A stretch of 64,000 nucleotides of DNA from a virus (IMGVR_UViG_3300042350_003801); one strand, 5' to 3'; positions 7,346 to 50,608 are shown, counted from the first letter of the stretch. Numbers and translations: made by a program. Notes: generated by a model not told the origin, from the sequence alone.

Positions 7346-7957
7346 TCAACCGGCCACAAAACCTTCAAACATTGGCACGAAAACTGGATTATCAATACCA
7401 CCAATTAGTTCATAAGTGGCATTCCCGGCGGCATTCCTGGCGGCATTCCTGGCGGCATTCCAGGCGGCATACCCGGCGGCATTCCCGGCGGCATTCCTGG
7501 CGGCATTCCTGGCGGCATCCCTGGCGGCATTCCTGGCGGCATCCCAGGCGGCATTCCAGGCGGCATACCCGGCGGCAATCCTGGCGGCAGACATGGCGGC
7601 AGACATGGCGGCATTCCTGGCGGCATAGTCTAGGGCATCATAACGGCGGGCAACTTCATTCCATTGGTTCTCGGTAAGACCGTCCATAAACCACCAGAAG
7701 TTAATGACGGTTTCGTAGTTTGGTCCTAAAAAGTCTTGTGGATTGGTTAGGGCTTCCGGGTTTTGAAGGCCGTTGGAGAAGTTTTGATGTGCTTTGGAGT
7801 ATGCCAATCGTTTAGGAGTAAGAACATAGTTGTTGACCAAAAGATTGGATAGTTTGACCAACAATTCAACTTGTTGCTCCAATGTAAGGTTCCCAATAAT
7901 TTCATCAACAGTAATTTGAACTTCAGTGGCGGGAGCAGGAAAAATAATCGGGCTCAT
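7346..7957 (-). CDS. GPNY-family paralog with 17 AAxx repeats and N-terminal extension
   Basis: [14 protein letters not shown]...ATYEL. Confidence 0.8.
7421..7624. repeat. 17 x 12-nt repeat GCCGCC-DGG-NNT
   Basis: Counted directly. Confidence 0.95.
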
Positions 7958-8031
7958 GGGTTGTTGTTTGCAGTTGACTTTGGTAGTTTAGACTACGGGT
8001 TGGAACAGTGGCGGACCCAGTGTGCCAGTTG

Positions 8032-8727
8032 CTAGACCGTCAGGTTGTATATCATATCTCTATGTTTTGTTGTCCATTCAAGATTGGAGTATCCTCCTTG
8101 TTCATATACCCTATCACATTCAATTTCATTATTAAGATAGTTCAACCAGGCAGTGCAAAAATTCATTGCAACTTCCCTCACACATCCCGGTGAGTTATCA
8201 TTAAGTTCATAAACCAAGGAATGCCTTTCAGACAGAGGATAAGGTCTTACATACTTGTACTCGCCGCTTAACACGGTTCTCCTTGGGTTATTCTCTTCTT
8301 CTACGAGTTGTTGGTATAAACTACCAGCAGTTAGGTCTTCCGGTTTAATATCGGGGAAGACATACTTTGCAAGTTCTTGTTCGATGAACTCTTCTTTATT
8401 CCAATTACTTTTTCTTTCTTTGCCTAGTTCTTTGAGTAAATTCTCCATAGATTTTCGTGTTTCTTCCCTACGCTCGGCGCGTTGTTCAATATATTGCCTC
8501 CATACTGGCATTCTCTTCTTTATCATTTTCTCTTTATTGAATTTGGGAAACAAATGAATTGGCAGCTTATCTTCAATGTCAATGGGTGACTGAGTTACTT
8601 CATCAATATGATATCCGTTTCCAATGGTAAAGAGAATATGGTTAAGAACACTTGCTGGACTAGGGAAAATACTATGATATTCGCCCATTTGATATGAAAT
8701 AAAATTGCAGATTGATTGAATTGTCAT
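8032..8727 (-). CDS. hypothetical protein
   Basis: ORF 231 aa. Confidence 0.75.
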   Translation of the reverse strand: MTIQSICNFISYQMGEYHSIFPSPASVLNHILFTIGNGYHIDEVTQSPIDIEDKLPIHLFPKFNKEKMIKKRMPVWRQYIEQRAERREETRKSMENLLKELGKERKSNWNKEEFIEQELAKYVFPDIKPEDLTAGSLYQQLVEEENNPRRTVLSGEYKYVRPYPLSERHSLVYELNDNSPGCVREVAMNFCTAWLNYLNNEIECDRVYEQGGYSNLEWTTKHRDMIYNLTV

Positions 8728-8785
8728 TGAAGGTTTGGATTTTGTTGTGGTTCTAGTGTATCACCTTAAGAGATGGCACATCTAT

Positions 8786-9184
8786 TCATTCCTTTTCAAG
8801 ATAAAAGCCATACTTGGATACTTCCTCTTGAAGGTCTGATAACCTAGAGAAAGTGGTCAAATTCCTATAGAATTCACTATTGGCAAATTCGTCAATCAAA
8901 CGAATACATTCCTCTTTAGTTTGAAAATAGCGTCTGCACACAAGAAGACCATCATCAATGTTGCTAATGGTCATTTGAACACAGTGATCATATTCGACCC
9001 ATTTATAGCCCCCATAGAAGTTGTAGCCAATCGTGAATTCTACAATTCCTGCACCATAATCGAGAAACTCAAGATGACCAGTCCTGACAATTTTTGAATA
9101 ACTATAGTCCAGGCTGGACTTATTGTAATGGTGAACCTGGCTAACTGCATCTTCGATGAGTTTGTGTAGTTCGTAAAGTTCCAT
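8786..9184 (-). CDS. hypothetical protein
   Basis: ORF 132 aa with palindrome promoter. Confidence 0.7.
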   Translation of the reverse strand: MELYELHKLIEDAVSQVHHYNKSSLDYSYSKIVRTGHLEFLDYGAGIVEFTIGYNFYGGYKWVEYDHCVQMTISNIDDGLLVCRRYFQTKEECIRLIDEFANSEFYRNLTTFSRLSDLQEEVSKYGFYLEKE

Positions 9185-9262
9185 TTGTTTGTTGTTAAGG
9201 TGTCGGAAGTTGCTATTCTACAGGATGGGTTGGAGCGGTTGCGGGTTTATTGTGCCGGTTGT

Positions 9263-9487
9263 TTAAGTAGCACACATTTTCTCAACTGTTTCCAATTCAA
9301 TTCTTCCAGATTCAAGTTCATAAGGACTCGCAATATTCAACCATAAAATGAATTGGTCACCAGTTAAATCTGTGATAGGATTTACTTTAATAATTGAAGG
9401 GCGAATTGATTGGTAATAACTATCATACTCGAGCAATTTATCTATTTTGGCTATCCGAATTTTATCTAACAATTCAATGTCGGTCAT
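9263..9487 (-). CDS. hypothetical protein
   Basis: ATGA-coupled ORF. Confidence 0.65.
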   Translation of the reverse strand: MTDIELLDKIRIAKIDKLLEYDSYYQSIRPSIIKVNPITDLTGDQFILWLNIASPYELESGRIELETVEKMCAT

Positions 9488-48276: not shown

Positions 48277-48677
48277 TAAAAAGAAAGCATAGGAATAAAA
48301 ATCAATTCTTCGCCTTTATCAAGAATAGTTTGTAGGGCAATAAGTTCAAAAGTGACTGGGGCAGGAATGCTTGGAAACTTTCCTATAATATTTCTAACGA
48401 GGCTTCTAGATGCACTTGCGGCAGTAGCTCGTCTGTCCCAATCTAAAATTTCTTCAACATGATCAACGATCTCACAATATCTATTATTATATTGCATTTG
48501 TTTTAAACTATACTTACCTTCAAGTTCTAATAGTTGTTCTTTTGTCAACGTTTCAAGATACCACCAAAAGTTAAGGACTGCTTCATAGTTTGGTCCTAGA
48601 TAATTTTCAGGATTATCATATACTTCGTGAGTGCCATTGCGCTCAGCCAGATCTTGATGGGCTTTAGAGTAGTTCAT
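48276..48677 (-). CDS. GPNY-family paralog
   Basis: YLGPNYEAVLNFWW...TFELIAL. Confidence 0.8.
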   Translation of the reverse strand: MNYSKAHQDLAERNGTHEVYDNPENYLGPNYEAVLNFWWYLETLTKEQLLELEGKYSLKQMQYNNRYCEIVDHVEEILDWDRRATAASASRSLVRNIIGKFPSIPAPVTFELIALQTILDKGEELIFIPMLSF

Positions 48678-49108
48678 AAGTCGTTAAAAAGAGGAACAAA
48701 CAATAAGTCCTTACCGTCATTCAATAGAGTATGCATACCCATTAGTTCATAAGTGGCAGACCTGGCGGCATCCCAGGCGGCATACCTGGCGGCAGACCCG
48801 GCGGCATCCCTGGCGGCATTCCCGGCGGCAGACCAGGCGGCAGACATGGCGGCATCCCTGGCGGCAGCCCAGGCGGCATCCCTGGCGGCATACCCGGCGG
48901 CAGCCCAGGCGGCATCCCTGGCGGCAGCGTCTAGGGCATCATAACGGCGGGCAACTTCATTCCATTGGTTCTCGGTAAGACCATCAATAACCCACCAGAA
49001 GTTAATGACGGTTTCGTAGTTTGGTCCTAGAAAATTCTGTGGATTTGTTAGGGCTTCAGGGTTTTGAAGGCGGTTGGAGAAGTTTTTATGTGCTTTTGAG
49101 TAGTTCAT
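48674..49108 (-). CDS. GPNY-family paralog with 14 AAxx repeats
   Basis: Repeats at 48758-48925. Confidence 0.85.
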
Positions 49109-49110
49109 AT

Positions 49111-49608
49111 TCAGATACAATAAAGTTCAAGTTCAAATTCACGGTCTTTCAAGTTTTTAATTTTTTGAAGAACCTCCTGGCGATGATTTTCAAATCCCGA
49201 AATCCAAAAAACTCCCTCAAACGTTTCTACAAAATTGGGATAATTTTTCCACTCTTTTTCTACATATTCATCAAACTCCTTTTCACCTTTCCAATGAACT
49301 CTATCAATAATAACTCCTTCTTCTAGCATTTTAAAAAATGATTCTTTAGTCCAGCCACTATTGTTGCTTTCAGTGAAGATAATTCTATCTTCTATTTGAA
49401 AATCAATAGCTTTATTCCACTCAAAATATTCCCCAATTTGAGCATCGAAAGTTGGAATAGACATAATTGAGTCCGTTACAGCAGTTGGTGTCTGCCATAA
49501 AATGTCGTGCCGTTCTACTTGTTCTTCAGGCTCACCCGAAGGTAGAGTAACAATTCTGGTTGCCAAAAGATAAAGGTTGAAACTCATTTCGTTTAAGAGG
49601 TTGCCCAA
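49111..49608 (-). CDS. hypothetical protein
   Basis: LWQTPT motif; ORF 165 aa. Confidence 0.7.
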   Translation of the reverse strand: MGNLLNEMSFNLYLLATRIVTLPSGEPEEQVERHDILWQTPTAVTDSIMSIPTFDAQIGEYFEWNKAIDFQIEDRIIFTESNNSGWTKESFFKMLEEGVIIDRVHWKGEKEFDEYVEKEWKNYPNFVETFEGVFWISGFENHRQEVLQKIKNLKDREFELELYCI

Positions 49609-49688
49609 TGGTTATAGGAGATTTTTGACGAGAATTGTGATTTGGTGTGCCAGTTTAACAATTGTCTTCTTAGGAATTTCGGCAGCGA

Positions 49689-50498
49689 TTATTCTGGCAC
49701 AGAAAGACGTTCTACTCCACCCATATACGGAATCAATGCGGCAGGCAAGGCAACACTACCATCACTTTGTTGACCATATTCTAATAATGCTGCCATTGTG
49801 CGGCCAACCGCTAGACCGCTACCATTAAGAGTGTGTAACAATTGAACATTCTTATTATCCCTAAAGCGAATAGATGAGCGGTTAGCCTGAAAATCAGTAC
49901 AAGTGCTACAACTAGAAATCTCGCGGTAAGTACCAGCGCCAGCCATCCAGACCTCTAAATCATAAGTGCGAGCAGCAGAAAATCCTAAATCTCCGCCACA
50001 TAGTTCCATACGGCGATAAGGTAATTCTAGAGCCTCTAGTATGCCTTCAGCATCGCAGGTAAGTTGTTCGTGAGCTTCCAACGATTTTTCGGGATGACAG
50101 AACCAATACAGCTCAACTTTATTAAACTGATGTAAACGAATTAACCCTCTTGTATCTCTTCCATAAGAACCAGCCTCGCGGCGGAAGCAGGGTGTATGCG
50201 CCACATATTTTAAGGGTAGGCGATCTATATTAATGATCTCGTCACGATGTAGGGCAGTGATAGGAACCTCGGCCGTGGGAGTAAGCCATAGATCATCATT
50301 AGCACACTTAAAACTTTCATCCGCAAATTTGGGAAGTTGCCCCGAACCAGTCAGACTTGTGCTATTTACTAAAATTGGGGGCATAACCTCTTTATATCCA
50401 TTGCCAGTATGACGATCGAGCATAAAAGAAATCAAAGCCCTTTCTAATTTAGCCCCCTGTCCCAATAAAGTCACAAAACGACTTTGTGCAATACGCAC
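49689..50498 (-). CDS. serS: seryl-tRNA synthetase, catalytic C-terminal portion only
   Basis: [57 protein letters not shown]; lacks the N-terminal coiled-coil arm. Confidence 0.9.
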
Positions 50499-50608
50499 GG
50501 AACGTTCACGGTTGCATAGTTTGGTCCTAAAAAGTCTTGTGGATTGGTAAGTGCTTCTGGTTTTTGTAGGAGGTCAGAAAATTTTTGATGGACATTTGAG
50601 TGATTCAT
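50471..50608 (-). pseudogene. N-terminal GPNY-family fragment interrupted by serS
   Basis: [34 protein letters not shown] then out-of-frame serS DNA. Confidence 0.8.

Follow-up and report, generated by a model that had tools for sequence, protein, structure and literature searches.

The 64-kb window of viral DNA analysed here (i.e. the whole 64,000-nucleotide stretch from IMGVR_UViG_3300042350_003801) carries, between positions 7346 and 50608, an undescribed, virus-only multigene family of small all-helical accessory proteins. Copies of this family share conserved N- and C-terminal parts around a variable middle that is predicted to form a two-helix hairpin, and family content differs between related phages. 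Tentatively, and at close to an even chance, the family is read as a set of cassette-built helical proteins forming a standing set of binders or inhibitors on one scaffold with a variable hairpin. A subset of seven copies contains a 12-bp tandem array whose variation is strongly restricted, and these copies are treated separately below.

Family members were collected with a profile hidden Markov model (HMM), built from the window open reading frames (ORFs) containing GPN[YFW] and searched against the six-frame translation of the window. Twenty-two copies (E-values of 1e-17 to 1e-56) and three stubs were recovered, all on the minus strand, and no other frame in the window scored below E = 0.9. 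A sequence-only reading of the same DNA had proposed 22 family ORFs, one of them frameshifted, and this number was reproduced. The proteins are about 115–150 amino acids (aa) in length and mostly acidic (pI 4.4–6.6 in 21 of 22), 21 of the 22 copies are intact, and two classes can be distinguished, consisting of 15 non-repeat and seven Ala-repeat copies. An alignment of 21 sequences had invariant residues at G26, N28 and E110 and at least 90% conservation at Y29, N34, F35, W36 and L42; G26, N28, W36 and E110 were still invariant when the alignment was enlarged by 126 relatives. Column entropy was low at residues 21–40 and 107–130 and high at residues 51–105, where the variation in length was also located. 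The conserved frame consists of an N-terminal motif (LGPNY..V.NFW) and a C-terminal motif (AT.EL..MH.LL..G..L.F.PLF), bearing out the earlier proposal of shared terminal motifs around a variable middle. Copy 12787–13143 is not truncated; it is a short variant in which both frame motifs are kept and the middle is all but missing. Other copies are referred to below by their lower coordinate.

Many copies are chained head to tail by ATGA stop/start overlaps, in which the stop codon after a terminal Leu of one copy is overlapped by the Met of the next. All eight of the junctions listed in the sequence-only reading were present (20562/20559, 26222/26219, 37127/37124, 37501/37498, 43252/43249, 44611/44608, 45009/45006 and 48677/48674); two more ATGA junctions were found, a ninth between copy 35092 and a 24-codon stub and a tenth between the remnant at 33511–33663 and copy 33143. 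Both of the fragments reported earlier were recovered, although the 24-codon stub at 35021–35095 had been missed. The cause of the single frameshift (copy 45006–45447) was an exact 67-bp tandem duplication at 45233–45369 (2.0 copies, 100% identical), and removal of one 67-bp unit in silico restored a single open frame with both family motifs. Contigs from four lake metagenomes end about 30 nt inside both ends of this duplication, which suggests that the reads contain either the duplication itself or several forms side by side. Two of the three stubs are explained by a TnpB element that lies between two remnants of one family copy, being flanked by the 24-codon N-terminal stub and a 51-codon C-terminal remnant (33511–35095). 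A contig joining 33662 to 35053 was found in each of three metagenome runs (X1, X2 and X6), with a short side of only 22 nt.

The distribution of the family was examined in several collections. A profile search of 1.84 billion representative proteins gave 413 clusters (50% identity) at E ≤ 1e-3, 286 of them at E ≤ 1e-10, in viral proteins. Neither megablast with a 10-kb query nor tblastn with three family copies matched any of 50,697 deposited phage records. With a repeat copy as query, a word-based search identified at least 497 clusters of the repeat type at 90% identity, all annotated as 'hypothetical' and several located on contigs of 129–250 kb. Relatives were present on seventeen IMG/VR contigs, mostly several per contig, and 14 family copies lie on L018, a 20-kb stretch of a close relative that is syntenic with the window. 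A scan for the degenerate GPNY..NFW motif in one genome for each of 185,579 prokaryote species produced only four chance matches, a search that GSNY, GPNW and DFW variants would escape. Judged by these searches, the family is confined to uncultured viruses. Eight window copies and the 126 relatives had no match in Pfam or NCBIfam, no PHROG family matched the non-repeat copies and no relevant report of a comparable cyanophage multigene family was found in the literature. Some relatives carry extra domains (among P0061, P0114, P0140 and P0111), for example a Cys-rich domain at the N-terminus (CMCAQGQ...); two family domains flank a ribbon-helix-helix domain in P0111, and several relatives are tandem fusions with two family domains each.

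Structures were predicted for one copy of each class. The AlphaFold2 model of copy 44608, made with the paralog alignment, was all-helical with a predicted local distance difference test (pLDDT) of 93 and a predicted template-modelling (TM) score of 0.87; the variable segment formed helices 59–76 and 80–93, and the conserved N-terminal part of ~55 residues had a pLDDT of 91–98. The repeat copy 35092 (pLDDT 87) was predicted to present its array as a long hairpin of helices 61–86 and 92–110, with low confidence at the turn, as expected because any unit could form the turn. The conserved N- and C-terminal parts are therefore confidently modelled as helical and the variable middle as a two-helix hairpin, in keeping with the proposal of a fixed scaffold and a variable middle, for which column entropy had supported the frame. 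Nothing reliable was returned for these models by Foldseek against PDB and BFVD or by a shape search of the ESM Atlas. The AFDB-cluster matches (TM 0.5–0.65) were limited to unnamed proteins and the C-part of a J-domain protein, and a profile search of all PDB sequences produced no match at E ≤ 10. Both models were compared exhaustively with 48,161 solved chains, and for both the top match was 8ows_A (Z 6.8 with a root-mean-square deviation (rmsd) of 3.8, and Z 5.1 with rmsd 4.0), covering about 107 of 122 residues at 5–9% identity; the runner-up chains had Z values of 4.3 and 4.6. PDB 8OWS is a complex of the PT1(Em) DNase toxin with the PIM1 immunity protein (10.1101/2021.10.19.465003). The Z values are low and chain A may be either protein of the complex, and no functional conclusion is drawn from this match. 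HEAT/PBS-lyase repeats, considered on account of D-VR..AA motifs in relatives, were ruled out as there was no Pfam match.

The 14 full-length non-repeat copies are only 30–37% identical to each other and have diverged along their whole length. Nine of the 14 have clearly closer relatives on other contigs (44–86% identical), while the remaining five reach a best identity of 33–37% among the few contigs at hand. As the closer relatives are elsewhere than in the window, the duplications must be old and at least nine lineages have been kept in related phages. Selection was assessed by the Nei-Gojobori method for four ortholog pairs between the window and L018. The ratio of non-synonymous to synonymous divergence (omega) for whole family genes was 0.28–0.45, i.e. 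4–6 times that of the neighbouring helicase, aminoacyl-tRNA synthetase (aaRS), RNA ligase and denV genes (0.06–0.08). Within the genes, omega was 0.25–0.61 for the N-terminal end, 0.09–0.22 for the C-terminal end and 0.37–0.64 for the middle in three pairs, the fourth not being computable as it had no synonymous difference. The middle outpaced the C-terminal end in each of the four pairs; against the N-terminal end it was ahead in just two of the three computable pairs. On these comparisons, the orthologs are under relaxed purifying selection and constrained far less than the enzymes. Since no omega reached 1 in the ortholog pairs, the results do not fit hypervariation of the non-repeat copies in the manner of antibodies, and the earlier idea of an antibody-like repertoire is not supported for these old paralogs. 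Synonymous divergence (dS) was lower (~0.23) in two of the four family pairs (44228–45009 and 36771–37127 versus L018) than in the helicase, aaRS, RNA ligase and denV genes (0.6–1.05); this may reflect a more recent exchange of cassettes between phages, the number of sites being small.

A different pattern was observed for the seven Ala-repeat copies, which are dispersed across 42 kb. Identity among these genes is 92–99% over the 177 nt that precede the array; after the array, it is 84–100% for five of the seven genes. The arrays consist of 9–17 units of a 12-base repeat, GCCGCC-NGG-NNT, encoding Ala-Ala-x-x. Across the 99 units of the seven genes, positions 1–6 and 12 never vary, position 9 varies once and position 8 (G) varies in six units (about 12% of units in relatives), so that nearly all variation falls at positions 7, 10 and 11. 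Just 14 of the 64 possible unit types occur, C is absent from positions 7 and 10, and the differences between unit types all change an amino acid; in the flanks of the same genes, synonymous differences were present at 7 of 23 variable sites. All 198 array Ala codons are GCC, a codon used for only 18% of Ala residues in twelve other genes. The same GCC-GCC-NGG-NNT form was found in the arrays of six other contigs, and in 1,287 units from 119 homologs the first variable residue was W, R or G in 88% and the second D, Y, S or N in 89%. Such residues are typical of antibody paratopes and of minimal synthetic binder libraries. Copies 27153 and 48674 have flanks that are 99.6% identical (1 difference in about 250) and arrays that share at most 5 of 14 units in order. 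Tandem Repeats Finder detected higher-order periods of 36, 48 and 60 nt, indicating block duplication within the arrays. Our reading is that a small pool of unit types has been duplicated, lost and reordered, with selection keeping diversity at two putatively exposed residues. The notion of an exchangeable insert accordingly stands for the seven repeat copies and is not supported for the remaining copies, which are old paralogs diverged over their whole length. A further step, which we consider rather doubtful, would be to view the repeat copies as a natural minimal-alphabet binder library, i.e. an Ala-packed hairpin displaying only W/R/G and D/Y/S/N residues, whose diversity would come from 12-bp units being gained, lost and reordered while selection favours varied amino acids, and not from a retroelement or from point mutation of a fixed-length loop. 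If true, a lytic phage would gain a fast-changing set of inhibitors against host defence proteins beside its stable old paralogs.

Turnover of cassettes was evident from comparison with L018. Core genes of the window and L018 are 81–88% identical at the DNA level, and family content is unlike in at least six places: four copies are present ahead of the helicase gene in L018 versus two in the window; one additional copy is located behind the aaRS gene in L018; a repeat copy of L018 sits between the orthologs of 44608 and 44228; different copies follow denV; the order of copies behind the RNA ligase gene differs; and the TnpB element has a different location. The homologous element of L018 (84% identical) lies between the RNA ligase gene and three family copies. 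One L018 gene (5223–5624) starts with 40 residues of the repeat type (85% identical in DNA across 128 nt) and continues with a body of the 48276 type (66%); it is, as its two halves are read here, a recombinant of two subtypes. Within the window, otherwise diverged paralogs share tracts of 18–59 nt with 83–100% identity, located at the motif and in the first 20–24 nt and last 24 nt of the genes. Tracts of this length provide enough homology for recombination in T4-type phage. Recombination at the conserved ends is supported because the order and number of cassettes vary relative to L018 and a chimera occurs there; together with the near-identical tracts, these results favour the earlier suggestion that the ends serve as recombination handles. 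Overall, the conserved frame with its variable middle, the recombination handles and the exchangeable insert of seven repeat copies survived from the sequence-only reading, and antibody-like hypervariation of the other copies did not.

The window has a G+C content of about 40% and nearly all of its genes are on the minus strand (coordinates of the family copies are listed in the table). Its own proteins have been recorded from a contig of 250,336 bp; two further repeat-type proteins (P0167 and P0214), neither of which is encoded in the window, are listed for a contig of equal length. The DNA of the window was found in lake-water metagenomes from 2020 to 2024. A domain scan of window ORFs recognised a class II aaRS, a truncated class IIb aaRS, a helicase, an RNA ligase, an HNH endonuclease, two TnpB genes and a tail-collar fibre protein, together with an AAA_33 kinase adjoining a metallophosphoesterase, a CCA-type nucleotidyltransferase and an RNase T-type exonuclease. 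A denV-type pyrimidine-dimer excision domain is on record for a 169-aa gene of L018, whose counterpart in the window, by synteny, is 43653–44162. Genes for RNA repair and translation are interleaved with the family at 35558–39404, 19310–20086, 42304–42894, 45523–47016 and 49689–50498. This interleaved cluster comprises the RNA ligase, the AAA_33 kinase and metallophosphoesterase, the CCA-type nucleotidyltransferase, the RNase T-like exonuclease and the two aaRS-like genes (one class II of Asp/Lys/Asn type and one truncated class IIb). Genes of the T4 Rnl1/Pnkp type counter host anticodon nucleases.

Several other features of the window were observed. Weak Pfam matches to Prok-E2_D and Prok-JAB are located at 29211–31320, and an intergenic 102-bp tandem repeat (1.9 copies, 84% match) is present at 31751–31943 beside these ubiquitin-like (Ubl)-type genes. 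A strong terminator-like hairpin (35552–35573, minus strand; 9-bp stem and T run) separates the phosphoesterase gene from the start of copy 35092; promoter-like and terminator-like sites in the window were not in excess of those in shuffled sequence. When contigs of four lake runs were compared with positions 33000–50700, non-repeat segments were identical between 2020 and 2024 and the contigs broke at every repeat copy. One stretch of 7,762 bp (35510–43271) had zero differences between 2020 and 2024 contigs, indicating that the genotype was stable over years. The N-terminal extension of copy 7346 is also present in homolog P0040.

Table. Family copies, remnants and the inserted TnpB gene in the window
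Position	Strand	Description
7346–7957	-	Ala-repeat copy; ~60-aa N-terminal extension, variant C-end (...NPVFVPMF...), 17 units at 7418–7626
12787–13143	-	Short variant; both frame motifs, hairpin nearly missing, Thr/Pro-rich tail
14741–15154	-	Non-repeat copy; strongly acidic, net charge about -16
15394–15813	-	Ala-repeat copy; 12 units, array 15484–15633
20149–20562	-	Non-repeat copy; ATGA to copy upstream
20559–21038	-	Non-repeat copy; family domain begins ~30 residues into ORF
25812–26222	-	Non-repeat copy; motif variant GSNY, ATGA-joined
26219–26689	-	Ala-repeat copy; 17 units, array 26300–26509, GTG start
27153–27596	-	Ala-repeat copy; 15 units, array 27240–27415
33143–33511	-	Non-repeat copy; ATGA to remnant upstream
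33511–33663	-	C-terminal remnant; last ~28 residues match profile, adjoins TnpB element
33814–35010	+	TnpB (IS605 OrfB) gene, non-family; between two remnants of a family copy
35021–35095	-	24-codon N-terminal stub; ATGA to copy upstream
35092–35538	-	Ala-repeat copy; 15 units, array 35173–35357, 48/60-nt higher-order repeat, AlphaFold2-modelled
36771–37127	-	Non-repeat copy; L018 ortholog (86% aa)
37124–37501	-	Non-repeat copy; ATGA-joined
37498–37920	-	Non-repeat copy; ATGA-joined, immediately behind RNA ligase gene
41918–42304	-	Non-repeat copy; GPNW motif variant
42878–43252	-	Non-repeat copy; ATGA-joined
43249–43650	-	Ala-repeat copy; 9 units, array 43365–43481
44228–44611	-	Non-repeat copy; L018 ortholog (73% aa)
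44608–45009	-	Non-repeat copy; AlphaFold2-modelled (pLDDT 93), L018 ortholog (84–86% aa)
45006–45447	-	Copy disrupted by exact 67-bp tandem duplication
48276–48677	-	Non-repeat copy; ATGA-joined, immediately ahead of helicase gene
48674–49108	-	Ala-repeat copy; 14 units, array 48755–48926
50474–50608	-	N-terminal stub; 34 residues match profile then divergence, ahead of truncated class II aaRS-like gene

Taken together, these results show a family that grows and reshuffles as whole-gene cassettes, joined head to tail via ATGA overlaps, with the near-identical short tracts at the motif and gene ends supplying homology for unequal recombination. In the repeat subfamily, 12-bp units are duplicated, dropped and reordered, and they differ only at codon positions that alter the two non-alanine residues of each unit. 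The conserved parts would pack into one scaffold on which the hairpin would be an exposed binding surface, and the paralogs may bind or inhibit different host or competitor proteins, the likeliest targets being defence or toxin effectors with translation or nucleic acids as their point of attack. Each old paralog would retain its own specificity and the repeat-coded copies would act as a fast-changing arm. A small binder or inhibitor with a counter-defence role, more than an enzyme, fits with proteins that are small and acidic, have no catalytic motif, are maintained as many paralogs and include a paratope-like array code. It also fits with the location of the fastest-evolving, length-variable middle in the modelled hairpin and with neighbours that repair or replace tRNA and translation components.

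Several points weigh against this proposal. The binder, inhibitor or anti-defence function is one that we infer, and the neighbourhood provides a functional hint only through guilt by association. The invariant N28, W36 and E110 could form an active or binding site, in which case the proteins would have one common function and there would be no repertoire. Omega is below 1 in every region measured, such that positive selection on the non-repeat copies is unsupported. The Z values for 8ows_A are below the level that is meaningful for helical bundles and, by an estimate of size based on surface figures in the preprint, chain A is more likely the smaller partner, i.e. the toxin rather than the immunity protein.

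A narrower form of the same explanation, which we consider unlikely and yet the strongest of the alternatives, is that the family represents very divergent Imm5 or Imm5_like immunity proteins and that the array is a 'polyimmunity locus' directed against nuclease or deaminase toxins of the host. A language-model feature search placed a repeat copy and a non-repeat relative near PF21805/PF14423 viral clusters with scores of 0.75–0.87, although scores under 0.9 are leads only. An alignment of phrog_8332 to residues 27–127 of a repeat copy begins at the GPNY motif, but this PHROG matches just 10 of 126 relatives, assumed to be the alanine-rich ones. The Imm5-like link therefore consists only of weak feature scores and of PHROG matches presumably arising from alanine arrays. 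The profiles themselves argue against it, as neither PF21805 nor PF14423 matched at E ≤ 1 in eight window copies or at E ≤ 0.1 in 126 relatives and PF21805 was empty in five related viral contigs. No named Imm5 structure was among the PDB, AFDB, BFVD and Atlas matches. Imm5 is described as 'mostly alpha' with conserved R and D residues (PMC3482391). No toxin gene is nearby and the strict family motif was absent from the prokaryote genomes scanned. Among the scanned neighbours in the window and in L018/L021, no toxin domain was found, the neighbours being RNA-repair, aaRS, helicase, glycosyltransferase and similar genes. This absence has little weight because tandem arrays of immunity genes without toxins are reported for Imm families and polyimmunity loci can lack toxins (PMC3482391).

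It is improbable that the family constitutes no adaptive repertoire and is instead a recombination-prone cassette multiplying by unequal crossing-over, with most copies being near-neutral passengers. The elevated omega relative to neighbouring genes would be expected of passengers, as would the stubs, the copies broken by a duplication or interrupted by TnpB and the variation in copy number and order between close relatives. These observations must be set against the intactness of 21 of the 22 copies, an omega well under 1, the retention of the frame motifs at 30–37% paralog identity, the persistence of several orthologs at 44–86% identity in other phages and the wholly non-synonymous variation of the arrays.

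Packaged 'internal proteins' (IPs) comparable to those of the T4 IP locus, in which the N-terminus would be a capsid-targeting and protease-cleavage signal and the remainder would be injected to disarm defences, are a much less probable explanation. The T4 IP genes have a short conserved N-terminal signal, are otherwise different and are located in a variable locus. Many family copies do contain an L/I-x-E tripeptide within the first 25 residues; however, the repeat copies lack it there, the conserved N-terminal part of ~55 residues is confidently modelled as folded, and the C-terminus is conserved as well.

Only marginally more remote is the idea that a mutator of the diversity-generating retroelement (DGR) type alters only template adenines in GCCGCC-AGG-AAT, so that the repeat copies would be DGR targets of a new type. 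The three adenines of this commonest unit fall at the main variable positions, NGG and NNT never yield stop codons and the other positions are fixed even across phages. Nevertheless, no reverse transcriptase (RVT) was detected among the scanned window ORFs of 250 aa or more and no all-adenine template array occurs outside genes in the window. The pattern of changes is also ill-suited to such a mutator: C is missing at positions 7 and 10 even though CGG would still encode Arg, 50 of the 64 unit types are unused, the non-adenine position 8 varies, and the changes in unit number and the block duplications fit slippage and unequal exchange. Least probable of all is a role as interchangeable substrate adaptors for phage ubiquitin-like conjugation genes, akin to the F-box and ankyrin-PRANC expansions of large eukaryotic viruses, as the conserved frame plus variable surface, the weak Prok-JAB and Prok-E2 matches and the three copies (25812–27596) just downstream of the Ubl-type genes are offset by the location of merely 3 of 22 copies near those genes and by related contigs carrying many copies with no Ubl-type genes in view.

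About 9 kb of one 43-kb stretch, in a genome of roughly 250 kb, are spent on this one unnamed family, hundreds of variants of which occur in lake viromes. If the proteins are binders or inhibitors, freshwater cyanobacteria would have in them a rich natural source of factors for anti-defence or host takeover. As for the repeat-coded hairpin, it would exemplify surface diversification via shuffling of units with a restricted residue code, unlike DGRs and immunoglobulin-type systems. The helical scaffold, small and confidently modelled, may also appeal to protein engineers; it accommodates hairpins ranging from about 10 to 70 residues.

Comparison with known systems sets the family apart in different respects. 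Imm5 and Imm5_like proteins, phrog_8332 and phrog_18326 are likewise small, mostly helical proteins with Ala-rich AAxx-type helices and tandem arrays and are frequent in phages; the differences are the lack of a profile match, a GPNY..NFW and EL..MH.LL...PLF frame that is peculiar to the window family and the absence of linked toxins. The PT1/PIM1 complex (8OWS) resembles the family in being the best solved-structure match of both models, and differs in that identity is 5–9% and no histidine is invariant across the family (the mutated residues of PT1 are His44 and His48). Variable proteins of DGRs (e.g. Mtd of Bordetella phage BPP-1) also have a fixed scaffold, diversified surface residues, stop-proof codons and adenine-centred variation. 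Their scaffold is a C-type lectin fold, in contrast to the helical-hairpin repeat predicted here, for which the number of units varies, the alphabet is restricted and neither a reverse transcriptase nor a template was seen in the window. Large eukaryotic viruses possess ankyrin-PRANC, BTB and F-box families that number tens of paralogs and pair a constant module with a variable binding module, and expansions to at least 20 copies are usual in giant eukaryotic viruses and uncommon in phages. The family described here is from a bacteriophage and consists of much smaller, single-domain proteins with no known constant partner. T4-type phages contain variable regions such as hyperplastic regions and the IP locus, with PeSL-mediated exchange of cassettes. 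The window has in common with these regions its small genes between core genes, their gain, loss and reordering, and recombination at short conserved sequences; it differs in that a single family provides more than 20 cassettes and in that the homology lies in the coding frame and the ATGA junctions, not in intergenic promoter stem-loops.

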